A stretch of 54,948 nucleotides of DNA from a virus (Duplodnaviria > Heunggongvirae > Uroviricota > Caudoviricetes). The notes under the pieces were generated by a model. The model did not search any database. It worked only from the letters and a program-made list of their open reading frames with translations, and was not told where the DNA came from. Made by a program: the position numbers and the translations under genes. Each line of letters starts with the position of its first letter. The stretch's first letter is position 1. Positions 5,069-27,502 of this stretch are shown piece after piece. Location: the IMG/VR virus record IMGVR_UViG_3300033074_000450, positions 64,001-118,948 of that record; one strand, written 5' to 3'.

Positions 5069-5328
5069 TGAGTGGAACCAACCTAGCCACTTTACCTTTT
5101 ATAGGTCCTAAAGATAAGGACGGGGATGATGGAGGAGAACCAAATCCCGTCCAAATCATTATTGATGTGGCAGTCAATGGTTATATCGTTAATATTAGTG
5201 GAACTGAGAACGATGAGGGTCCAAAAGTCTATCTCTTTAATGGTAGGGGAGATGATGGACCTCAAGCCATGATGCAAGATATCATCAATAATCTTGGTCT
5301 AGTAGACAAGGTAAAGTTACAAAAATGA
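5068..5328 (+). CDS. Hypothetical protein
   Basis: TAATG coupling to the AAA gene. Confidence 0.55.
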   Translation: MSGTNLATLPFIGPKDKDGDDGGEPNPVQIIIDVAVNGYIVNISGTENDEGPKVYLFNGRGDDGPQAMMQDIINNLGLVDKVKLQK

Positions 5329-5777
5329 TTTTATCCGTATTGAAAGACACGCATCCAAAGCTTAAAAAGGTAGCGGCTCCAGCAGACCCTACCAAAGCTC
5401 ATCATAAAACTCTAGCCAGACGTTTGGTAGAGACTATGAAGGCTCACGAAGCTTTGGGTATTGCAGCTAATCAAGTGTTTCCAGGTGAGCTGGTAAGAAT
5501 CATTGCAGTCAATACCAGCGTCTATAAGGGAGCAATGTTTAATCCCGAAATAATTCAAAAAAGCGAATTAGGTACTATCCTAAAAGAAGGCTGTTTATCA
5601 ACCAAAGAACGAGTAGAAATGAACAGACCTTTTCGAGTCACTGTCAAATTCTTTGACATCTCAAATCGAGAACAAACCATCGAATTTATGGACGTAGATT
5701 CCCATGTGGTTCAACATGAGATTGACCACTTGAACGGAATTGTAATTTCAGACTTTATTATTGACAAAAAGAAGTAA
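5325..5777 (+). CDS. def: Peptide deformylase
   Basis: All three PDF motifs: LGIAANQ, EGCLS, QHEIDHLNG. Confidence 0.95.
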   Translation: MILSVLKDTHPKLKKVAAPADPTKAHHKTLARRLVETMKAHEALGIAANQVFPGELVRIIAVNTSVYKGAMFNPEIIQKSELGTILKEGCLSTKERVEMNRPFRVTVKFFDISNREQTIEFMDVDSHVVQHEIDHLNGIVISDFIIDKKK

Positions 5778-6078: not shown

Positions 6079-6432
6079 ATGGGCAAAAGCCGTAATTACG
6101 ACAAAGAGGCAGAACTTATTGATAGGCTTAAACATGAAAATGCCAAACTTAAGAGGGAGTTGGCAAAAATTAGGAGACAGATGGATAGGCTAAACTTGGA
6201 CCATGACAGATATAGAACTCTTCGAGAGCTTGTACATAAGCAGACTCAGGAAGAACGTCAGTCCAAAAAGGCCAAGGATAAATGGATTTGCTACGAATGT
6301 GGCAAGGGGACAATGAAGCTCCAACTGTTTCCTAGAAGAGATGGTAATTTTTATTTCAGGAAGTGTTCTTTGGAGGAATGCGGTCATAGAACCGAACTCA
6401 AGAAGCACACTCCAGATGTAGAGGAGTCGTGA
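6079..6432 (+). CDS. Coiled-coil plus zinc-ribbon protein
   Basis: N-terminal heptads; CYEC...CSLEEC. Confidence 0.6.
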   Translation: MGKSRNYDKEAELIDRLKHENAKLKRELAKIRRQMDRLNLDHDRYRTLRELVHKQTQEERQSKKAKDKWICYECGKGTMKLQLFPRRDGNFYFRKCSLEECGHRTELKKHTPDVEES

Positions 6433-7280
6433 TGGAAAAAATGTTGTTTGCAATCATTGGATTCATATTTGTTTCTGCTGGAGTCGTGCATGGAACAGCT
6501 AGACAAGAGGAAGCCAAAAAACCAAAACGTGTAGAAGAGACTAGGGTAAAAATAGCAGTCATTGATACTGGAATTAACGTATCTCCTAAACTAAAACCCT
6601 TCCTCTGCACCTCTGGACACATCTCTTTGGTTGATGACTTTCCTCTTAGAGATTCAAATGTTCAGATGCATGGAACCAATATCGTAGGTTTGATTTCTGA
6701 AAACTTGGACCCTAAGCGTGAATGTATTCTCATTATAAAATTCTATAAAGATGGCCTTCACGAAGACTTCTTTAAGAAAGTTAGAACTGCTGTAGATTAT
6801 GCTGTTTTTAGACAAGTCAAATTCATAAATATGAGTTTGGGTGGAGAAGGTGTTTCTGACTTAGAAAAGCTTGCTATAAGTAACGCTATTGATAAAAAAA
6901 TACGAATTGCGGTAGCCGCTGGAAACGGACTTTTCAAACCCATAAAAGATAAAGATGGTAAATTTGTTCGCTTAGATGGCACTAGGGATAAGGTTGATAG
7001 ATGGCCTCGTAAATATTATGCTGCATGGATAGGTCAGGATTTAGACAAAAACTGTTATTACTTTCCAGCTTGTTATCAATTTCCAAGTGAGTACTTCCGA
7101 GTCGTTGGCTCTAATACTGGATATGAGAATGACTTTGGAGGAGAAAATAGATATAGCAATTACGGTAAAAAAGTGACTCACTGGGAGAATGGGACAAACG
7201 TAGGTACTCCTAAAATGAAGGGGACATCTCAAGCCACAGCTATCAATCTGGGTAAGTGGGTTAGAGAGATTTATAAGTGA
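6429..7280 (+). CDS. Secreted subtilisin-like S8 serine protease
   Basis: Hydrophobic N-terminal signal; IAVIDTG (Asp), HGTNIVG (His), AVAAGN (oxyanion Asn), GTSQAT (Ser). Confidence 0.9.
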   Translation: MMEKMLFAIIGFIFVSAGVVHGTARQEEAKKPKRVEETRVKIAVIDTGINVSPKLKPFLCTSGHISLVDDFPLRDSNVQMHGTNIVGLISENLDPKRECILIIKFYKDGLHEDFFKKVRTAVDYAVFRQVKFINMSLGGEGVSDLEKLAISNAIDKKIRIAVAAGNGLFKPIKDKDGKFVRLDGTRDKVDRWPRKYYAAWIGQDLDKNCYYFPACYQFPSEYFRVVGSNTGYENDFGGENRYSNYGKKVTHWENGTNVGTPKMKGTSQATAINLGKWVREIYK

Positions 7281-8634: not shown

Positions 8635-8645
8635 ATGATATAATT
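8635..8645 (+). promoter_or_regulatory. Putative late promoter (extended -10)
   Basis: ATGATATAATT directly after the terminator; no -35. Confidence 0.7.
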
Positions 8646-13681: not shown

Positions 13682-14161
13682 ATGAGTAGCGGTTTTATTC
13701 CTGATAGAGATTCCAGCGGTAATATTATTCAGCAGCAGAGTCCCTTTTCTGCCAAAGTAATCAAAGACGGAAAGCTTTTTAGAAGACTTCACGGGTCAAC
13801 TTTTACACTCAATGCTTCTGGGGATACTGTTCACGAAATTACGGTCCCGTATCTAAAATGCAAAATAAATAAATTAGAACTTCTTTGGTTTCCAGAGGGA
13901 GTTACAGTTGATTTTGAAGTATTAGATACAGAGGATTGTGCTATTCAAATAGCTATGGGTGTTCCCGAACAGGATAGAGTTCCGAATGCTATGCTGAATC
14001 AATTTTCTTTTGGAGCAGGTATTAGAACTAATTATCATGAAGACACCTCAGAATATGATGCTGATTTGATTCAAGACATGAAAATAAGAATCACGCTTCA
14101 TAATCCTACGATTGTTACCAAAACAGTTTGTATCAATTCAGTATTTCATGAGATTAAGTAA
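13682..14161 (+). CDS. Hypothetical (virion-associated) protein
   Basis: Tightly packed in the late operon. Confidence 0.55.
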   Translation: MSSGFIPDRDSSGNIIQQQSPFSAKVIKDGKLFRRLHGSTFTLNASGDTVHEITVPYLKCKINKLELLWFPEGVTVDFEVLDTEDCAIQIAMGVPEQDRVPNAMLNQFSFGAGIRTNYHEDTSEYDADLIQDMKIRITLHNPTIVTKTVCINSVFHEIK

Positions 14162-14670
14162 TGAAAATATCCTACCTATTTTCTAGAAATGAAAAAATAG
14201 GTTCCAAGTTAATAGCTGGAGCAAGCGGTTTATTGGTTAAGGATTTGGAAAAGGTCCCATCTCATGTGGCTATTCTCTTGGAATTCGAGGGAGTATCCGA
14301 GAGTTTTGTAATAGAATCGGTTCTTGAGGCTGGAGTAAGAATCATACCATTTTCAGTCTGGCTTGAGAAAAACGAACTCTGCTATAGAATCTCTTGTGGA
14401 AAAGAGCGTACTCTAGATGAGATTTTTAAAGTAGTAAACTCTATCTGGGGTAAAAAATATGACTGGAGAGGCATCCTCTTTTTTAGTCTCTGTTTCATAA
14501 AACACCTGCTCTTTAAGACCCCTTTTCCAAAAGAAAACGCTTGGCAACGAGATGATTACTACTTTTGTAGCGAAGCTGCTGGTAAGATAAGTGGTTATGA
14601 AAAAACAGGTATGGCTACCCCTGCTAAAATGTGTTCCGACTTTCTCAAAATGAGCAGCTCTGAATTGTAA
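14161..14670 (+). CDS. Permuted papain-like NlpC/P60 enzyme (YiiX/YebB family)
   Basis: PSHVAI (His) precedes KYDW..I and YFCSEA (Cys), the permuted order. Confidence 0.75.
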   Translation: MKISYLFSRNEKIGSKLIAGASGLLVKDLEKVPSHVAILLEFEGVSESFVIESVLEAGVRIIPFSVWLEKNELCYRISCGKERTLDEIFKVVNSIWGKKYDWRGILFFSLCFIKHLLFKTPFPKENAWQRDDYYFCSEAAGKISGYEKTGMATPAKMCSDFLKMSSSEL

Positions 14671-15177: not shown

Positions 15178-15188
15178 ATGGTATAATT
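15178..15188 (+). promoter_or_regulatory. Putative late promoter
   Basis: ATGGTATAATT. Confidence 0.7.
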
Positions 15189-15219: not shown

Positions 15220-15600
15220 ATGCTTACAGCCAAAGTCCTAAATAGTGCAGCTTCCTTAAACAATTTCAAAGAGATAGCTTCCTTGGAATTTGTTATTGGG
15301 GAAGAGCTTAATTTAGTTTTTCGTCTACACGACCCTCAGTTTAATCTTAGACACGTTCCCCCTGCTACTGCTATTGTAAAAGTTACATTCAATTTGACAG
15401 ACGGTACTACTCTAGAAAAAACTGCTTCTGTTCTTGATGCTGGAGACCGCTCCATGCAAAAGGTTACTTTAACTGAACTAGAGACCGAAACTATCTTAGG
15501 TGGAAACCTATTGTTTCAAGTCGATGTTCTTGGAGATGGTTCTGAAATCATTAAGGGTGTAATCTCTAACGGTTTGAGCAAAATCATCTTAGATTGTTAA
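15220..15600 (+). CDS. Putative virion protein (Ig-like beta-sandwich)
   Basis: All-beta pattern; SD GAGGAG. Confidence 0.5.
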   Translation: MLTAKVLNSAASLNNFKEIASLEFVIGEELNLVFRLHDPQFNLRHVPPATAIVKVTFNLTDGTTLEKTASVLDAGDRSMQKVTLTELETETILGGNLLFQVDVLGDGSEIIKGVISNGLSKIILDC

Positions 15601-15609
15601 GGAGTCACT

Positions 15610-16446
15610 ATGTCTAAAGTAAAAGGCTCCAAAGAGGGAATCAGACAATCCAATAGACTCACTAAACGTGTGGGTCCACTTATCACCGTAGATGAGTTGA
15701 AATCACATTACTTGTTTGGTATAGTAATTGACGATGACAATGGGAACGAGCTTTCTCCAGAAGCCTATCAACAATTTATTGATAATGCGGTGTCTATGTT
15801 AGAGCACACTCTGGATATTTACATCACTCCTGAGACTATCATAGAAGACAAAGACTACCGAATCAATGATTATGCTGATTGGGGATATCTGTATCTAAAT
15901 AACTATCCTGTTGCGTCTATTGACAAGATTGAGATGGTTTACTTCAGAGATGCTGACGGAAATCCAGAAACTATTCAGGAAATCCCAACCAACTGGATGA
16001 GGCTTCAGAACCATGATGGTATTGTTCGTTTAGTCCCAAATGCTCGATTCCCAGCAAACCTACAAATTGACCAATCTGGAAACTATTTTCCAGAGGTTCT
16101 ACGTTCAAACATGGTTCCACATTTATGGAGATTGACTTATACTGCTGGTTTTGAAGATGGTAAGATTCCCGATATTGTGAATCAAGCTATTGGACTTCTT
16201 GCAGCGATTCAAGCCCTGATTGTAGGAGGTAACTTAGTTTTGGGAGCAGGTATCGCTTCTCAATCTATTAGTTTAGATGGTTTGAGTCAGAGTATTCAAA
16301 CTACGGCTTCTGCTGAAAATAGTACTTACTCTGCAACAATTAAAGAATACCAAACCTTACTTTTTGGTAAGAATGCTCAAGACCGTAGCGGTTTAATCGC
16401 AGTTTTGAAAGATTACTACAAAGGTGAGGGTATTGGAATAATTTAA
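15610..16446 (+). CDS. Head-tail adaptor / head completion protein
   Basis: ELKSHYLFG...NAVSMLEHTLD...YPVASIDKI...YTAGF...IPDIVNQAI...SQSISLDGLSQS connector pattern. Confidence 0.75.
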   Translation: MSKVKGSKEGIRQSNRLTKRVGPLITVDELKSHYLFGIVIDDDNGNELSPEAYQQFIDNAVSMLEHTLDIYITPETIIEDKDYRINDYADWGYLYLNNYPVASIDKIEMVYFRDADGNPETIQEIPTNWMRLQNHDGIVRLVPNARFPANLQIDQSGNYFPEVLRSNMVPHLWRLTYTAGFEDGKIPDIVNQAIGLLAAIQALIVGGNLVLGAGIASQSISLDGLSQSIQTTASAENSTYSATIKEYQTLLFGKNAQDRSGLIAVLKDYYKGEGIGII

Positions 16447-16476
16447 GGTAAAAGTTTTTTACCTTACGAGATTAAG

Positions 16477-19400
16477 ATGGATAAATATACAAAAGCGTTA
16501 GACATTCTTAAAAGTGTAGGAGAAGGAAGTCGAGGAGGCCATGTGATTGGTCATACTCGCTCTGGACAACCTATCTATGATTCAGCTAATCACGAAACTC
16601 ATCAGCAGTTTAAAGCTCAAGACCATAAAGATGCTATGAATCATCATTATGATATTTGGTCTAAAACACAAGAAAAAATCAACTCCATCAGACAACAAAA
16701 TCCTAATTGGAACCCTCCCAAGGAAATACATGATTTTCTAAAACATCATTATACTCAAATGCAGATGCATCAAAGTGTCATGGGTAGAAAAATGGATAGG
16801 GAAGCAGCTCAAGCTAAAAACCTTAAAAAATCTGACGAAATCACTCCTTTCTATTCAGCGGTAGTTGTAGTTGATGCCAAAAAGAAGAATTTCCTTTTAG
16901 GTAAACGGAAGAATGATGGGCTTTGGACATCTCCTGCTGGAGGAGCCAAAGTTGGAGAACTTCCCAAGAAAACGGCTATTCGTGAAGCTTTTGAAGAGGC
17001 TGGATTTGTTCTAGAAGAAAGTCAACTGCAAGAACTCCCTATGGGATACGCAGATAATTATAAGCCAGTGCATTGCTATGTGGCAATCTTATCCCCAGAG
17101 CAAATGAAGAAAATCTCCACAATAAATGACCCTGATGAAGAAGTCAAAGAATGGAAATGGCTTCCTATTGATGAGAAGATGCCAAATACTGACGAGAATC
17201 GTGCTGCCACTCTCTTGAACGCTAAGATGCATCTGGCAGGAATTGTAATGAAATCCTACCATAATCTAGATGATATGGAAGGCATGACTTCTATCAATAC
17301 TCATGAATTTAAAGAAGAGAATGAAGAGAGTCATCCAATTAAAGAAAGTATCGAAAGACTCATGGAAGGCTATGAATCTGGAGATGAGCCTCGAAGACTT
17401 ATGCTTGACGGGGAGCATACTCTACACTTAGTCCGAGTCGATGAGGGTATTTTTTCTGGTTTCGTTAAAAAGAAATCAGAAGATGGTATGGAAGAGACCG
17501 CTGTTACTTTGGACAAGATGCCTATTCCTAGCATCGTACAATATTTAAAAGCTAAAGAGATTCTTAAAGACGCTCCTAAACAGGTTGAGCTTAAACAAGA
17601 CGATTCTGCTCTAAGAGAAGTAATCGAGCGTTTAGCTGGTATGACTGTTTATGGAGACGTAAATATCACTATCAAAAAAGCCAAGGCTCTACCAATCGGA
17701 ACAATCCGTCAATGGGGAGTTTACAAGTACGTTAAACACGCAGATGGCTGGGTAGTTGTGGGAGGAGAGCATCATGGTAAGCTTATGGGTAATTTTAAGT
17801 CTGAGCCTAGTCACGCTGATTTTGCTAGACATCATGAGGGTTCGACTCCTAAACAAGATGAGCCTGAAACAAAGCCAGAAGCTCCAAAGGTGGATGAGGG
17901 GACTTCCTCAAAAGAAAAGCCTAAAGCAGAAGCTAAACCAAAGGCTGAGAGTCCTAAAGAAGAGTCTAAGCCTAAAAGCCCTGAAGAAGAAATTAAACAA
18001 GCTAAAGAGCTTGGGAAGAAAGCTTTTGAAGAAGGTAAAGGACCTGCTCCCTCACAAAGTTCGGAGCTAATGAAACTTTTTAAAGAGAGAACTGACCAAT
18101 CTCATGAACATGGATTAGCTCTTATGGATGCTTATGCTAAAGAATGGCATAGGGCTAATCTAGCTGCTCCTGTTCCAGAACCAGAAGCCAAGCCCAAAGA
18201 AGAGCCTAAGAAGAAGGATGAGAAGCCAGTACAAGAACCTGGAGCACCTGAAGCAGAGACCGAAGATGATGTTGATGACCAACCCGAAGTAGATGCTAAA
18301 TTTGGTCAAGTAGATAATCCTAGAGAAGAAGCTGAAGCTGAACAGGCAGAGCTTGAATCTGAAGGTGAGTATGCTAATGCTCGTAAATCAAAGATTTCAA
18401 ATATAGGAGAAGACGTAGAGGGTTCGGCTCGACATAAAGCTATGGACTGGAAAGGTCTTGCACAAGCTGAGAAAGATGGTAATGCAGAAGCTTTTATTAA
18501 ACGTGACCAATTATTGAAGATGGAACCAACCAAATTCGATGAGATGGTAACTCCTCAGAATTATATGGTCGCTCTTCAAATGCAATCTGCTTTGGAGCGT
18601 TTTCCTCCAGCTCCTAAACACTCTTGGTTAACTGGAGGCTGGGACTCTAAACCAGACGAAGAACTTCGCTATGCTGAAGTAATGACTCCTGCTGGAAGTA
18701 CTAGAAAAATACATCCATCTGAATTTGAACGTCTTGAGAGAGAAGGAAATCTTCCTGGAGAAGTCGTTAAAAAGGTAACTGTTGGAGATATCAAAAAACA
18801 AATCCGAAGTGATTATCTTGATGCCTTCAATAAGGTTAAAGCTGCTGCCACAGAAATCGTTAAGACCAAAGGTACAGCAGATATCGTGGAAAACATGAAG
18901 GCTCTTCAAACTGAGGTTCAGAAAATCATAAAAGAACGCAGAGAAAAAGACCGCTATGACGAGATGGCTAACAACATGATTAACTATCTCAATAAGACTG
19001 TTTCTCCATCACTACGCAAACGTAATAATACTGTAATGAATGACTTGAATGAGTTTGCTGAGATGGCAGCAAAATATCATCAAACCGATGCTGCTGGACT
19101 TTTAGGCAATAAAGAAGTAGCTGAACAAGCAAAGCAAGTAATTAAAGGAAAACCAGCATCCAAGATTTTTGGAGTTGAAAAAGAAGGTAAGAAACGCTTC
19201 ACAGCAGCAGACCTTTATGTGGACCATGCAGACCGTCAAGGACCTGATTCTGGTTTAAATACGGTTACAGAACAAGCTGATTTCTTAAGCAAAAAAGCTA
19301 AAATGAGAGCTGTTCAATGGGGTAACTCTGTTACGGATGAAGAGCGTGAACATCATTTAAAACATGCTGCCAACGCTTTTAAAGACCTTACTGACATTCT

Positions 19401-19998
19401 AGGACTCCCAGAAGAAATGGGTTCATTCAATGGACGCTTGGCTCTTGCAATCGGAGCTAGGGGTAAAGGTACAGCCTTAGCACACTATGAGCCAGATAGT
19501 AAAACAATCAACCTCACTCGTAAAAAAGGAGTTGGTTCTCTTGCTCACGAATGGGGACACATGCTAGATAACGTGTTAGGAGAAATCCACACTGGTTCTG
19601 GCAGAAATTATGTTTCCGAAGGCTCCGCTTATGGAAACAAAGATATCCCAGTTTATAAAGAAATGAAGGAGTTTCAGTATTCTGAAACAATGTCCCAGTT
19701 CCGAGATAAGGTAAGAGATGCTATTCGTGAAGAGCAAAAGAAGGGCAATTCTGTAGATTCTGATTACTGGATGTCCCGAAAAGAAGTTTGGGCTCGTTGT
19801 TTTGAAAAGTATGTTTCCCATAAGCTCGAAAAGTCTGGCAGAAAGAACACTTACCTATCTGGAGTTAAGGACCATGCTTTTTGGCCTAACGACAAAGAGA
19901 TTGAAGCTATGGCTCCATATTTTGATAAAATTATAGAAGCTGCTAAATCGAATGGTGACATCAAGAAGGCTTTAGACCTTCTAGGAATAACCCTTTAA
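16477..19998 (+). CDS. Large polyvalent protein: Nudix hydrolase plus C-terminal LPD1-like zincin domain
   Basis: Perfect Nudix box GGAKVGELPKKTAIREAFEEAGF (~16939-17007); VQWGNS...LALAIGARG...AHYEP...SLAHEWGHMLD...EVWARCFE (LPD1-like). Confidence 0.85.
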   Translation: MDKYTKALDILKSVGEGSRGGHVIGHTRSGQPIYDSANHETHQQFKAQDHKDAMNHHYDIWSKTQEKINSIRQQNPNWNPPKEIHDFLKHHYTQMQMHQSVMGRKMDREAAQAKNLKKSDEITPFYSAVVVVDAKKKNFLLGKRKNDGLWTSPAGGAKVGELPKKTAIREAFEEAGFVLEESQLQELPMGYADNYKPVHCYVAILSPEQMKKISTINDPDEEVKEWKWLPIDEKMPNTDENRAATLLNAKMHLAGIVMKSYHNLDDMEGMTSINTHEFKEENEESHPIKESIERLMEGYESGDEPRRLMLDGEHTLHLVRVDEGIFSGFVKKKSEDGMEETAVTLDKMPIPSIVQYLKAKEILKDAPKQVELKQDDSALREVIERLAGMTVYGDVNITIKKAKALPIGTIRQWGVYKYVKHADGWVVVGGEHHGKLMGNFKSEPSHADFARHHEGSTPKQDEPETKPEAPKVDEGTSSKEKPKAEAKPKAESPKEESKPKSPEEEIKQAKELGKKAFEEGKGPAPSQSSELMKLFKERTDQSHEHGLALMDAYAKEWHRANLAAPVPEPEAKPKEEPKKKDEKPVQEPGAPEAETEDDVDDQPEVDAKFGQVDNPREEAEAEQAELESEGEYANARKSKISNIGEDVEGSARHKAMDWKGLAQAEKDGNAEAFIKRDQLLKMEPTKFDEMVTPQNYMVALQMQSALERFPPAPKHSWLTGGWDSKPDEELRYAEVMTPAGSTRKIHPSEFERLEREGNLPGEVVKKVTVGDIKKQIRSDYLDAFNKVKAAATEIVKTKGTADIVENMKALQTEVQKIIKERREKDRYDEMANNMINYLNKTVSPSLRKRNNTVMNDLNEFAEMAAKYHQTDAAGLLGNKEVAEQAKQVIKGKPASKIFGVEKEGKKRFTAADLYVDHADRQGPDSGLNTVTEQADFLSKKAKMRAVQWGNSVTDEEREHHLKHAANAFKDLTDILGLPEEMGSFNGRLALAIGARGKGTALAHYEPDSKTINLTRKKGVGSLAHEWGHMLDNVLGEIHTGSGRNYVSEGSAYGNKDIPVYKEMKEFQYSETMSQFRDKVRDAIREEQKKGNSVDSDYWMSRKEVWARCFEKYVSHKLEKSGRKNTYLSGVKDHAFWPNDKEIEAMAPYFDKIIEAAKSNGDIKKALDLLGITL

Positions 19999-20007
19999 GG
20001 AACTAAC

Positions 20008-20856
20008 ATGAAAAAATTACAATTACTGGAAGAAATGGCAAAAAGTACTCAAGAGTTCAATCTAGCCATCAAGCTTCAAAAATCAGAAGAGTTCCAAAAG
20101 GCTCAAGGTCTTCCCGTAGGAAGCGTTAGATTGTGGCATGGTCAGAAATTCATTAAACAAGGTGATGGACACTGGGTCCCACTTCCTTCTGGTCAACAGG
20201 GACAAGGGCAGCAAAGTCAACCCCAGCAACAACCAGCTCCTCAACAAGAAGCTAAACCACAAGAGCAACAGGCACAAAAACAGGAAGCGAAAAGTGATGA
20301 GCTTGAAAAACAACCTCAAGAAAAATCTATTGAATCTGAACCTTTAGGCCATCTTAAGCCTAAAGAGGGGTTCGGAGGTCATGTAGGATTACATTCAAAA
20401 GACCTTGATGAGAGTTTGAAGAATGGTAAGTATTCCCTTATTTCTGCTGGACGTAATCCAAATAATGCAGGAGATAGGGCTCTTACAGATGACCAGATTA
20501 AAGAGCGTTATAAGCGTTTAGAGCAAGACTTGAAGGACCAGGGATACAAGTATTCTAAAGTCAAGGGTCATTACGGTGGAGAAGAAGATTCCTTTATGGT
20601 CCATCACGCTAAACCAGAACACATGAACGAGCTTGGGATGAAATATAACCAGGATTCAGTCATTCATAGCGACCAAGGCAAACATAAGATGCATTTTACT
20701 ACAGGTGACAATTCAGGGATGCATCATAAAGGTGAGGGTTTCCAAGAGGTCCCAGACGCTAAAGATTACTACAGTGTAATAAATACAACTGATGGGCAGC
20801 AAAAGAAGTTTAGTTTGAACTTTGATTTCGGCAAACACCATAAGGCCGATGAGTAA
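20008..20856 (+). CDS. SAM lyase (T3 SAMase-like) domain fused to a leader module
   Basis: LISAGR...KGHYGGEEDSF...KYNQDSVI...GFQEVP parallels T3 SAMase VSAFR...GCYRE...EEKT...WEQDCVL...SFQEVP (recalled from memory). Confidence 0.7.
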   Translation: MKKLQLLEEMAKSTQEFNLAIKLQKSEEFQKAQGLPVGSVRLWHGQKFIKQGDGHWVPLPSGQQGQGQQSQPQQQPAPQQEAKPQEQQAQKQEAKSDELEKQPQEKSIESEPLGHLKPKEGFGGHVGLHSKDLDESLKNGKYSLISAGRNPNNAGDRALTDDQIKERYKRLEQDLKDQGYKYSKVKGHYGGEEDSFMVHHAKPEHMNELGMKYNQDSVIHSDQGKHKMHFTTGDNSGMHHKGEGFQEVPDAKDYYSVINTTDGQQKKFSLNFDFGKHHKADE

Positions 20857-20866
20857 CAAATACAGT

Positions 20867-20877
20867 ATGGTATAATT
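20867..20877 (+). promoter_or_regulatory. Putative late promoter
   Basis: ATGGTATAATT. Confidence 0.7.
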
Positions 20878-20899: not shown

Positions 20900-22147
20900 A
20901 TGTCTAAAACAAAAGAACAGATTGATGTAGAAATTACAAACTTAGCTGAACAGATGGTTAAGTCTGTAACTGATTCTAAACAACTTCTTTTCGATACCAT
21001 CATGAATCTTGGTCCTGAGAACCTTAAGAAGGCCGTTGCCTCTCTTTCTGATTCTGAGAAGGAAGTCTTGAAATCATGTGTGGCAGACTTGCAAAAAGCT
21101 AAAGAGGTTTCTGCTGAAATCACTCCTAAGAAGACTGAAACTAAAGCTGCTGAAATGAAAACTGAGTCTCAGACTGGTTCTGATGATGAAGATGAAAAGA
21201 AGCTTATGGATGAGAAGAACGCAGAACATCCTCATCAAGGTGGACCTAAAGACAAGCCCGAAGGTTGGGAAGGTCAAGTAATTAAAGCCAAAAAAGAAGA
21301 CGAAGAGCCTGAAGTTGAAATGCCAGCTAAAGAAGCTGTAAAAGAGCACAAGCGTCTAGTTAATGTTTTGGAGTCTGATTCTAAAAAAGATGACAAAGAA
21401 GAAGCTAAAAAACAAAAGAAAGAGCTTAAAGAATATCAATCAGAAATGAAAAAAGCTGATGATAAAGCTGTTGATGCTTTGATTCAGATTGAGGAAGCAG
21501 AACACAATAAAGATATTAACGGTGACGGTAAAATTGCCGAGAAACTTGAAAAGGAAAAGAAAATGAAAAAGTCATTAGAAGAAATCGTTGAGTTGGCTAA
21601 GTCACTCAATATGTCTAAAGAGGAAGTCATTAAGACGATTAAAGATTCTAATGATGACCTTGAACTTGTTAAGGGCAAAATGAAAGAAAAGTTTGCCGAA
21701 CAAGGTATGAAGCTTGCTGAACCCAAAAAAGAAGACGAGGGTTCTCCCGAAGATAAGAAAGAAGATAAAAAGGAAAAGAAGATGGAGAAATCTGTCAACT
21801 GGAACTTTAAGTCCTCTATCGCTGCCAATAGTTTGGGTCGTAATACTCACTGGGATGTGGATTCATACATCGAGAAGTCTGAAGCTGAGAAGCAAGAGAT
21901 TATCAAAAAAGGTGGATATTTCGGAGAAACTCAAGATGAGACTCTTCAAAAGTCTGAGTCTAAAAAAGTTGACATTAACGACCTAATCGAAAAAGGTCAA
22001 GATTATTCTACTGAAGAAATCAAGCGTATTGAAGGTATCCGTGACCACAAGATTGAAGGTAAGGTTGTTAAATCTTTCCACGATGAGGATATCGCTGCTG
22101 CTCTTGGCATGACTAAGGAAGAATATAAAAAGTTAATGGGAGAGTAA
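20900..22147 (+). CDS. Highly charged internal head / scaffold-like protein
   Basis: K/E/D-rich; more than 10 hydrophobic-x-K-[SAG] motifs; DINGDGKI loop. Confidence 0.6.
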   Translation: MSKTKEQIDVEITNLAEQMVKSVTDSKQLLFDTIMNLGPENLKKAVASLSDSEKEVLKSCVADLQKAKEVSAEITPKKTETKAAEMKTESQTGSDDEDEKKLMDEKNAEHPHQGGPKDKPEGWEGQVIKAKKEDEEPEVEMPAKEAVKEHKRLVNVLESDSKKDDKEEAKKQKKELKEYQSEMKKADDKAVDALIQIEEAEHNKDINGDGKIAEKLEKEKKMKKSLEEIVELAKSLNMSKEEVIKTIKDSNDDLELVKGKMKEKFAEQGMKLAEPKKEDEGSPEDKKEDKKEKKMEKSVNWNFKSSIAANSLGRNTHWDVDSYIEKSEAEKQEIIKKGGYFGETQDETLQKSESKKVDINDLIEKGQDYSTEEIKRIEGIRDHKIEGKVVKSFHDEDIAAALGMTKEEYKKLMGE

Positions 22148-22151
22148 TCCC

Positions 22152-22955
22152 ATGTCAAAACCCCAAGGCTGGAATCAAAAGCCTCCAGTGCAGTTAGCTG
22201 CTAAACCTACTGGGGGAAGGGTCGATATAGACCCTGCAAAATTTGAACAACTCATTCAAGAGAAGGGTGTTCGAGTTAAAGTCTATAGGACTGTTTTTTG
22301 TCCAAACGTAAAATCTATTGACGGTGGAGAGCACAACATTGATTGTGACCTCTGTAATGGTTCTGGTTTTTTAGATACCAGACCAATTTGTACCCTTGCA
22401 TTCATTCAAAATCAAGCTCTAGAAAAACTTCCCTTCGTAGAAGGTATGGTTGATGGTAACTCCGTAGCGGCTACTTTTCCTATGGGAATCGAGCTTCAGT
22501 ACTTTACTCTTGTGGAACTTGAAGACTTTACTGAAATCTATTTTCAACGTGTCAAGCGTCAAGAGGGTGATATAGATGTTCTCAAATACAAGGCTCATAG
22601 AGTTAATCTTTGCATAGACCAATATGGAAAAGAGTATTTCCAAGACAATGATTTTTGTATTGACCCCAACGGATGTATTAAATGGAACCCGAATAAGGGA
22701 CCTAATCCTGGAGATATTTACTCAATTCACTATGAAGCTTCTGTTCAATTCAGGGCCGTAAGAGCCATGCATAATAACCGCTTCACTCAGTACCTCACCA
22801 AAAAAGAGGGAGGGGGAGCAGTTCATGTTAAACTTCAAGAGCAATGGGTTCTTCAAAAAGAGTACTTAGTTAAACGAAAAGACCTAGATGGTAATGAGAT
22901 TCTCCCGAACCTCATTCATGAAAAAACTGACCCAGACGCTCCAGAAGAAGATTAA
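22152..22955 (+). CDS. Neck / head-closure protein with Zn-binding motif
   Basis: FEQLIQEKG..VKVYRTVFCP...CDLCNGSG matches the Herelleviridae-type neck protein pattern. Confidence 0.7.
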   Translation: MSKPQGWNQKPPVQLAAKPTGGRVDIDPAKFEQLIQEKGVRVKVYRTVFCPNVKSIDGGEHNIDCDLCNGSGFLDTRPICTLAFIQNQALEKLPFVEGMVDGNSVAATFPMGIELQYFTLVELEDFTEIYFQRVKRQEGDIDVLKYKAHRVNLCIDQYGKEYFQDNDFCIDPNGCIKWNPNKGPNPGDIYSIHYEASVQFRAVRAMHNNRFTQYLTKKEGGGAVHVKLQEQWVLQKEYLVKRKDLDGNEILPNLIHEKTDPDAPEED

Positions 22956-25784: not shown

Positions 25785-25985
25785 ATGAAAATTTTACCCG
25801 TACACCTTTTAAAACTCCGTTGGCTCCTTGCTAATACAGACCTCTTGAAGAGGACTGAGCTGGAGCTGGTACAAAATATGCAACAATCTTGGTCAAAAGT
25901 CAATTACTTAGTTTCCTGTCCTGTAACTTTGTCTGCATTGGATAAAGTTTATGAGTCTGTCAAAAAGGAGTACACATGTCAGTAA
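25785..25985 (+). CDS. Hypothetical protein upstream of sigma
   Basis: SD AGGAGG; overlaps the sigma start. Confidence 0.6.
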
Positions 25986-27502
25986 AAGATACGCTCGAAT
26001 CTTACAGTGCAGAATTAGATGTGGTCAAGTCGTATCTTGCCAAACTGAATAGATTGGAACTTCTTACCAAGGACCAAGAAGCTGAGATTTGCAAAGCTAT
26101 CGAAGTTGGAGAAGATAAGATTCTGAAAGTGTGTGTCAGGTCCCCTCTCATTTTGAAACAGATTCTTTCTTACAGAAATATTCTAATAGAGAATCCTTCT
26201 ATGGTAGTTGGCATGGTTAGAAAGCTAGACGAGGAATCCTCTGATGAAGAAATAAATGAAACCTTTAAAAGGATGTTTACCCTTTTTGAGGCTATTGACA
26301 CTTTCCTAGATAAGCCTACAAAAGTTTTGGAAAAGAAGATTGTTAGTGAATTACAGGAACTCACCTTTAATACTAAAACCATCACGGCTTTTCTTCAACC
26401 ATTCAAAGACTTAGTTCAGAAGGCTAAGGATTTGAGAAAGAAGAGTGACCTCAATCTCAAAGAGTTAAGACTCGAAAACCATAAACACTTTGCAAAACTG
26501 TTGATTTCTTTGACAGATAAACTTGAAGGTAATGAGCCTATTTTAAATGAAGAAGCTGTGAGTAATCTAGCCCACTCTCTTGGCTTTTCTGTAAAAGAGA
26601 CAAGAGCCATGATTGAAGCTCAGAAAACTTTGATGCGTGAATTAGCCATAAATTCAGTATTGCTTGAAAAAGACTATAAGAAGCTGGAAACTACTAACTC
26701 AGTTTTATTCAAAGCGGAGCAAACTGCAATCCTAGCCAAAAACAAACTAATTGAGGGAAATCTTCGTTTAGTAGTTTCACGGGCTAAAAAGTTCACTAAC
26801 CGAGGTTTGGAGTTTGAGGATTTGATTCAGGAAGGTAACATTGGGCTAATGAAGGCTGTTGATAAGTTTGAATATCGAAAAGGTTATAAATTCAGTACTT
26901 ATGCAACATGGTGGATTGACCAAGTTCTAGGAAGGTCTATTGCAGACCAATCCAGAATGATTCGTTTACCAGTCCACATGGTTGAGACCGTCAACGCTGT
27001 TAACAAAGCTAGAGCCCGATTGATTCAGGTTCTAGGCAAGGAACCATCTGTGGAAGACCTAATCAAAGCTACTAAGCTTGAGGAAGATAAAGTACGAAAA
27101 GCTCTCTCTATTGCAAAAGACCCAATTAGCTTTGAGACGGAGGTTTCTGGAGACCAAGATTCCCCAGAAGGTTCAACTCTCGAAGATTTTATCGCAGACA
27201 CTTCCGAGACCAGTGCCTACAAGAATGTGGTTAGACAAGCCCTGATGGAGGGTATTAGAAAGCTCTTGTCAAGACTTCCTCCTAGAGATGAGAAGATTAT
27301 TAGGCTTCGTTTTGGTATTGGGGAGCCTTTGAACGAAGATTATACTCTAGAAGAGATTGGAAATAAGTTTCCAAATACTAAAACTGGAGAGCCTTTGACC
27401 AGAGAACGTATTCGACAAATTGAAGAAAAATGTAAGGCCAAACTCAAGAAAATGAGCAAGGGTGAGATTTTCAAGCTCTTGTTCCTTTCAGAAGATTTGT
27501 AA
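25976..27502 (+). CDS. rpoD: Phage-encoded RpoD-like group 1 sigma70 factor lacking region 1.1
   Basis: Region 1.2 DVVKSYL..LLTKDQE; non-conserved region; [49 protein letters not shown]; IRLPVHMVE; TLEEIG...TRERIRQIE. Confidence 0.97.

Follow-up and report, generated by a model that had tools for sequence, protein, structure and literature searches.

S-adenosylmethionine (SAM) lyases are known as early-expressed anti-restriction enzymes that also counteract bacteriophage exclusion (BREX); in the locus described here, a gene for a member of this family stands among those for virion proteins. The gene in question, P0001, lies in a 54,948-nucleotide stretch of DNA from an uncultured phage (the window) that corresponds to bases 64001-118948 of the 118,948-bp viral record IMGVR_UViG_3300033074_000450. 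It occupies positions 20008..20856 on the + strand, encodes 282 amino acids (aa) and starts 9 bp past the stop codon of a gene for a large polyvalent protein. The separate-gene form is also present, at 61-86% identity, in independent assemblies. The reading that the comparative evidence tends to favour is that P0001 is a capsid-loaded, injected SAM lyase, a predicted stand-alone cargo unit of the polyvalent-protein system.

By Pfam score, fold and key residues, which are all of the family criteria that can be tested, P0001 is a member of the SAM-lyase family. The Pfam scan of P0001 gave a match of residues 158-258 to PF23780 (S-AdoMet_lyase) with an E value of 4.2e-10 and 40.1 bits, the gathering cut-off being 28 bits; T3 gp0.3 scores 143 bits on the same model. 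A weaker match to DUF3293 overlaps the PF23780 match. When the whole genome was searched with PF23780, P0001 was recovered at 41.4 bits as the sole copy in 118,948 bp and, this being the only copy, anti-restriction of the incoming DNA would require that the enzyme be delivered with the DNA.

The fold was evaluated with an AlphaFold model computed from a 14-sequence alignment, which had a mean predicted local distance difference test (pLDDT) score of 74.7. The model consists of four parts, an N-terminal helix, a three-stranded beta meander, a disordered stretch and a compact alpha/beta domain. The last of these, the SAM-lyase-family domain, has a PII-like fold and extends over residues 120-275 (20365..20832, + strand) with pLDDT values >90. 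Foldseek returned two significant matches in the PDB, both of them chains of the T3 SAM lyase, 8bb1_E (the better one, E 1.5e-4) and 7ock_K. In VIA-align comparisons, T3 8bb1_E aligned with a Z score of 12.2 over 128 of 147 residues (3.4 A) and Svi3-3 (6zm9) with a Z score of 5.8 over 93 residues, while the first unrelated chain reached 4.8. An exhaustive structure pass over 48,161 PDB representatives gave Z >5 for T3 (10.9) and Svi3-3 (5.8) only. In the viral structure library BFVD, the top matches were polyvalent and "structural" proteins, followed by small T7-like phage proteins, several of them annotated as SAM hydrolases. Searches of the PDB chain sequences with P0001 or with a 53-member profile found nothing at E values up to 10; the relationship to T3 becomes visible only with the Pfam model or at the level of the fold.

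The T3-type lyase domain that the initial annotation had read from the sequence is thus borne out. The limits given there, about 20425-20830, agree with the Pfam span and with the confident part of the AlphaFold model, the four motifs quoted were all found (ISAGR at residues 145-149, GHYGGEEDS at 187-195, NQDSV at 214-218 and GFQEVP at 244-249), and T3 was the best match in the structural comparison with T3 and Svi3-3 that had been suggested as a check.

The presumptive active-site residues fall in two segments, G187-H-Y189-G-G-E192-E193 (20566..20586, + strand) and Q215-D216-S217 (20650..20658, + strand). Profile alignment against T3 by hhalign, although weak in score, paired G187-x-Y189 with G55-x-Y57, E192-E193 with E67-E68 and Q215-D216 with Q94-D95; the corresponding Svi3-3 residues are G56, Y58 and E69 in the first segment and Q104-E105-S106 in the second. 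In the active enzymes, strict conservation is limited to G56, E69 and Q104 (Svi3-3 numbering), and the E69Q mutation abolishes activity (PMC7877911). The T3 E68Q mutant does not rescue the auxotroph (PMC7877911). The activities of T3 E68Q and Q94A are each fivefold lower and the double mutant is dead.

The conservation of these residues was assessed by searching 1.84 billion cluster-representative proteins with residues 120-282, which gave 829 matches at E<=0.001 and 83 at 1e-30. The 150 best-scoring of the 829 matches, together with close homologues, made up the 159 relatives examined. G187 and Q215 are each present in 159/159, Y189 in 158/159, E193 in 156/163 and D216 in 143/159, and such near-invariance among diverse relatives is as expected for an active site that has been maintained. 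The surroundings of the site differ. The tyrosine and the glutamate pair are separated by only 2 residues (a Gly-Gly turn) in the P0001 clade, as against 9 in T3 and 10 in Svi3-3, and the T-loop is essentially missing.

T3 gp0.3 (PDB 8BB1 and 7OCK) shares with P0001 the Pfam family, the best structural match and the G-x-Y, Glu and Gln-Asp residues, but the sequence identity is only about 20%. It is a 152-aa protein with a single domain, encoded by the first of the early genes, and about 10,000 molecules of it are made per cell; it is an inhibitor of MetK as well, by way of residues that the family as a whole does not share. In P0001, by contrast, a small beta module and a linker precede the domain, and the gene belongs to a structural-gene unit beside a polyvalent protein. 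Svi3-3 (PDB 6ZM9 and 6ZNB; PMC7877911) has the same PII-like fold, and its G56, E69, Q104, Y58 and E105 all have counterparts in P0001. It differs in that the structural match is much weaker than that of T3, in its full T-loop and in being a trimer with inter-subunit sites.

The neighbour of P0001 indicates what kind of setting this is. The gene at 16477..19998 (+ strand) encodes a 1173-aa polyvalent protein with a NUDIX domain at residues 128-244 (57 bits), a copy of the small beta module at about residues 405-430, a low-complexity linker and an LPD1 zincin-like domain with the sequence HEWGH at residues 1094-1158 (51 bits). Its ortholog P0016 (1305 aa, 64% identity over 599 residues) was found on a 116-kb contig, L003, with the same gene order as the window. 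The C-terminus of P0016 carries the whole lyase unit, beta module, linker and domain, fused to the polyvalent protein. Altogether, four related phages display three layouts of one cargo slot, which is located between a conserved 278-aa protein and a conserved virion protein of approximately 265 aa. The lyase gene is split from the polyvalent gene but adjacent to it in the window and in the independent assembly L012, fused in L003, and relocated behind a K/E-rich protein in L008. The recurrence of the split in L012 means that it is real and not an assembly error. The polyvalent protein of L008 (L008:2253-5225) combines NUDIX with RelA/SpoT instead of LPD1, and a different combination at the same position marks the slot as a variable cargo site.

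Both flanks of the slot are conserved. The left flank, a 278-aa protein resembling head-completion and head-tail connector proteins (15610..16446, + strand; phrog_772, E 7.8e-46), was matched in an Atlas search to PF24163 HCP and PF05135 connector clusters with a feature score of 0.95 and, depending on the target, a template modelling (TM) score of 0.68-0.72; it is 82% identical in L003 and 53% in L008. The right flank is a 267-aa protein (22152..22955, + strand) that matches phrog_1004, 'virion structural protein', at E 1.2e-14 and is 91% identical in L003 and 57% in L008. Between P0001 and this protein lies a conserved neighbour, the gene for a 415-aa K/E-rich protein (20900..22147, + strand) without a Pfam or PHROG match, which keeps its position in L003, L008 and L012, although only parts of it align (42-67% identity over about 150 residues).

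Phage polyvalent proteins have been predicted to be packaged and injected with the DNA, and detached 'solo' versions of their domains are known (Iyer et al. 2017, PMC5512222). The present locus resembles those systems in its upstream NUDIX+LPD1 gene and in the occurrence of the lyase domain in multi-domain proteins near portal and MuF genes. It differs in that the text of that study contains no SAMase, AdoMet or DUF3293, and none of its LPD Pfam families matches the lyase domain. P0001 itself has one enzymatic domain, and a polyvalent protein is defined by at least two disparate ones; with a single such domain, P0001 was classified as an associated solo module and not as a polyvalent protein.

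The usual home of the lyase domain in other phages is likewise a large protein. Among the relatives examined, 112/159 are at least 400 aa long, 74/159 at least 700 aa and 31 at least 1000 aa, and the partner domains identified by Pfam in sampled relatives were NUDIX, Zeta toxin, mCpol, InPase, TopoIB, ParB and LPD1, as well as ART-PolyVal. In an unrelated phage of about 80 kb (L004-L006), a lyase gene with the same beta module follows the portal and GNAT genes; downstream of it are a MuF-like gene (24.4 bits, which is below the cut-off), an SNF2 gene and a gene for a protein of >2400 aa. In Flavobacterium phage elemo, the domain is found inside a 3694-aa protein annotated as a 'structural protein'. 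A general coupling between zincin and lyase domains was also considered and rejected as too weak, HExxH being present in 19/112 relatives of at least 400 aa when about 9 would be expected by chance, and about 8 appearing genuine. On these architectures, the P0001 clade is a loop-less SAM-lyase clade that serves, as far as can be judged from gene organization, as a polyvalent cargo module, here detached as a gene of its own.

The region of P0001 that precedes the lyase domain was examined for signs of how such a module might be loaded. The N-terminal helix (residues 1-29; 20008..20094, + strand) was modelled as a helix at residues 2-29 with pLDDT values of only 40-59. Next is the beta module, hereafter the mini-module, with the sequence L-P-V-G-S-V-R-L-W-H-G-Q-K-F-I-K-Q-G-D-G-H-W-V in residues 35-59 (20110..20184, + strand) and strands modelled at 40-43, 46-52 and 55-58. 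It is followed by a linker rich in Q, P, E and K (residues 61-109; 20188..20334, + strand), which differs in length and sequence among homologues. The initial annotation had described a Q/P/K/E linker, and this is real, residues 62-109 being modelled as disordered with pLDDT <50. The cleavable-looking leader described with it found no support. The helix is kept in close relatives only, as seen in the alignment, and is absent from the fused ortholog P0016; what is conserved is the beta module and the linker.

The N-terminal sequence M-K-K-L-Q-L-L-E-E contains L-L-E, and close homologues keep a hydrophobic-x-E sequence there. The internal proteins of T4 have a short N-terminal leader ending in (L/I)-x-E that is cut by a gp21-type (Peptidase_S77) prohead protease. 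The capsid protein of the present phage is SPO1-like, not T4-like. The T4-type prohead protease family PF03420 had no match in the genome, a result that is uninformative as the control was also blank everywhere, and the HK97-type family PF04586 had no match in the genome either. A head maturation protease is present in the genome and belongs to other PHROG families.

The mini-module is the more widespread element. Six-frame pattern searches located copies in the window at 17689 and 20110 only; the former, A-L-P-I-G-T-I-R-Q-W ... G-W-V (17689..17763, + strand), is that inside the 1173-aa polyvalent protein, and BLASTP pairs both copies. The consensus L-P-x-G-T-x-R-x-W ... G-x-W-V had no match to a Pfam family and is also present in P0016, P0017 and P0021. 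It was counted 21 times in 18/160 family proteins, twice in some of them, and as a rule 70-140 residues N-terminal to the lyase domain. In nearly all of the 21 listed occurrences, the sequence hydrophobic-x-K-[G/S/A] stands directly before it and a disordered linker follows. The mini-module might act as a tag for loading, mark a site of processing or simply space the domains apart. The SPO1-like major head protein (L007:15301-15540, genome 63300-63539) has the sequence L-Q-K|A at residues 28-31, about where its 'capsid protein precursor' relatives might be trimmed, and this matches the K|S/A pattern before the mini-module; in such Lys-rich proteins, the fit proves nothing.

P0001 is located in the head-completion and neck part of the structural region. 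The genes for terminase, portal and head maturation protease, together with those for a scaffold-like protein and the SPO1-like major head protein, are located just upstream of the window and reach into its first 709 bases, while the tail sheath and baseplate genes follow downstream. The initial annotation had assigned the gene to a late head-gene operon. This holds insofar as the gene belongs to a structural-gene transcription unit and not to the early genes; the main head genes (terminase, portal, protease and major head protein), on the other hand, are at least 19 kb upstream, and the neighbours are head-completion and neck genes.

The transcription unit at 15220-20856 is opened by an extended -10-type promoter motif, ATGGTATAAT, at 15178..15187 (+ strand), and the next copy of the motif, at 20867..20876 (+ strand), lies 11 bp past the lyase stop codon and opens the following unit. 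The pattern RTGRTATAAT has 10 matches in the window, at 8635, 10753, 11581, 14711, 15178, 20867, 27523, 33168, 39957 and 46886, all on the + strand, as compared with 0.49 expected. In the whole genome there are 14 matches, of which 12 fall in the structural region at 51-111 kb; the positions outside the window are 13584, 51059, 59324 (on the - strand) and 62109 of the genome. Since the motif is almost confined to the structural region, P0001 shares its promoter class with the virion genes, and its expression would probably be late. The copies have no obvious -35 element, and the phage encodes its own sigma-70-family factor at 25976-27502.

A virion-borne member of the family has been reported. 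In Synechococcus phage S-CREM2, gp6, a 'SAM hydrolase (virion protein)', was detected in 2023 by mass spectrometry of CsCl-purified virions (OR473000; PMC10665884), and its authors proposed that it enters with the DNA to counter restriction (PMC10665884). S-CREM2 gp6 scores 70 bits on PF23780, the Pfam family it shares with P0001, and hhalign related it to the P0001 clade profile with a probability of 90.6%. It differs in its size (414 aa), in having the lyase domain at the N-terminus and no mini-module, and in its setting, a T4-like cyanophage where it is encoded among replication and repair genes with no polyvalent neighbour. The gp6 gene is two genes away from a DNA adenine methylase gene, gp8 (L011:5245-6135).

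With gp6 published, a SAM lyase carried by virions is, as a general idea, no longer new. The statement in the initial annotation that such an arrangement was undescribed can therefore be kept only in part; a virion SAM hydrolase with the same proposed role has been described for S-CREM2 (PMC10665884), whereas the polyvalent-module form is absent from the literature searched. That search found no description of the polyvalent-module habitat of the lyase domain or of the split and fused series, and nothing for 'DUF3293'.

Taken together, the fused sister form, the polyvalent modules, the portal-side copy and the S-CREM2 homologue support a role of P0001 as virion cargo, insofar as gene context can indicate it. 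In the mechanism that we propose, P0001 would be transcribed with the head-completion genes from the promoter class described above, whose distribution is observed and whose late timing is presumed. The protein would then be loaded into the capsid either together with its neighbour, the NUDIX+LPD1 polyvalent protein, or by the same route; we infer this step from the fused ortholog, the usual polyvalent home of the domain, its portal- and MuF-side contexts and the homologue in S-CREM2 virions. It would be ejected into the cell with the DNA, as the polyvalent-protein model of Iyer et al. 2017 implies. By homology to T3 gp0.3 and Svi3-3, the lyase domain would bind SAM via G187, Y189, E193, Q215 and D216 and convert it to methylthioadenosine and homoserine lactone. 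The supply of cofactor for type I and type III restriction and for BREX would thereby be lowered ahead of all phage gene expression. Three DNA-methylase families (N6/N4, Dam-type and C5) had no match in the genome, so nothing from these families suggests that the phage needs SAM for methylation of its own DNA.

Several observations weigh against this proposal. The shortened loop alters the surroundings of the active site, so that cleavage of SAM is not assured. All of the delivery steps proposed for P0001 rest on genomic context, and detection of the distant relative gp6 in S-CREM2 virions is no proof that it is packaged inside them or ejected. The 'structural protein' label of the elemo protein is an annotation only. 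The dose raises a further concern. With a turnover of about 9.5 SAM per second for Svi3-3 and approximately 10,000 copies of the T3 enzyme made per cell, we estimate that a few tens of injected copies may be too slow to deplete the SAM pool, except in a small host cell. Finally, catalytically dead T3 SAMase still counters BREX by binding MetK, but the MetK-binding residues are restricted to close T3 relatives, so that this second T3 mechanism probably does not apply to P0001.

The possibility was considered that P0001 is a genuine SAM lyase that is made late, is not packaged and acts in the cytoplasm at a late stage of infection; it might, for instance, prevent methylation of progeny DNA, shut down SAM-dependent processes of the host or supply methionine salvage. 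In that case, nothing more than descent from a polyvalent module would explain why it is encoded among virion genes. The family and residue evidence fits this explanation equally, solo polyvalent domains are known (Iyer et al. 2017, PMC5512222), and the gene is separate both in the window and in L012, so that coupling to a packaged carrier is not required; the dose argument also favours synthesis in the cell. However, the family's established role is to protect the genome as it enters the cell, and an enzyme made only late could not do so. P0001 also retains the mini-module and linker as they occur inside polyvalent proteins. A place in the virion is indicated by the fused ortholog and by the portal-side contexts, and a family member has been found in the virions of S-CREM2. 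We regard the explanation as unlikely, with nonetheless a real chance of being right.

A second alternative accepts packaging and injection but assigns P0001 a scarce SAM-derived molecule as its substrate. The best candidate is SAM-AMP, the signal of type III defence by clustered regularly interspaced short palindromic repeats (CRISPR), and P0001 would then be anti-CRISPR-like, comparable to the candidate AcrIIIB4. The SAM-AMP lyases and AcrIIIB4 (Chi et al. 2025, PMC12255297) have the superfamily PII-like fold and the catalytic Glu/Gln pair, and a phage enzyme among them, which has an extra N-terminal domain, cleaves SAM-AMP and not SAM. The T-loop of Svi3-3 would clash with the AMP group, and this loop is nearly absent in P0001. 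The partner domains of relatives, NUDIX, RelA/SpoT, mCpol and InPase, act on nucleotides or signals, and a few injected molecules would presumably suit a signal better than a large metabolite pool. The SAM-AMP-specific enzymes differ in that aromatic residues of a distinct T-loop hold the AMP in place (PMC12255297); in the C. botulinum enzyme, the AMP moiety is held by W64, F84, T110 and Y122 (PMC12255297). Moreover, the closest solved structure to P0001, by a wide margin (Z 12.2 and 10.9), is the SAM-cleaving T3 enzyme. No SAM-AMP lyase chain was among the structural matches listed, which does not exclude a likeness. This alternative appears improbable.

A bolder form of the same idea would extend it to the entire loop-less clade, taken as an injected-effector module. 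The conserved prefix, hydrophobic-x-K-[G/S/A]-x-L-P-x-G-T-x-R-x-W ... G-x-W followed by the disordered linker, would act as a transferable tag for capsid loading or processing that several cargo domains share, and the substrate a scarce SAM-derived signal such as SAM-AMP, on the argument that only a few copies fit in a capsid. The proposal is decidedly doubtful as a whole. That P0001 is a non-catalytic binding or structural module that has merely kept the ancestral fold and would, for instance, sequester SAM or attach to a host protein, is highly improbable, for although dead T3 SAMase still acts through MetK and the shortened loop might impair catalysis, the five active-site residues are near-invariant in the 159 relatives and the residues of T3 that bind MetK occur only in close T3 relatives.

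With regard to the phage itself, a search of the region at the DNA level found no match among cultured phages. At the protein level, the matches to cultured phages were to the Flavobacterium elemo phages and one Myxococcus phage, with only weak matches to cyanophages. Of the public sequencing runs that contain the sequence, only small shares come from wastewater, soil and groundwater, and no RNA run was among those listed. Accessory genes are interleaved with the structural genes, such as an RNA ligase-like gene at 1080-1934 and a peptide deformylase gene at 5325-5777. A 169-aa protein encoded among the structural genes at 14161-14670 had conflicting weak matches, to a crotonase-like PHROG and to the papain-like C92 Pfam family. 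Between the capsid and neck genes, at 6429-7280, is a 283-aa protease-like gene (phrog_3677), and the L003 homologue of its product has the Pfam domain Peptidase_S8 (subtilisin), an unusual one for the structural region of a phage.

Under the early-gene strategy, a gap remains until the first protein of the phage has been synthesized. If SAM lyases of a large clade do travel in virions as polyvalent modules, depletion of SAM, or destruction of a SAM-derived signal, would arrive with the DNA, and the arrangement in T3 would be only one of several ways in which phages deploy a SAM lyase. A function would also be assigned to the DUF3293-like module found in hundreds of giant phage proteins. Should the module prove to be an injected effector that acts on a scarce signal, it would be the first pre-loaded enzyme to disarm a signalling defence at DNA entry. 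The split, fused and relocated forms in the four related phages constitute a natural test set for the loading of cargo into capsids.

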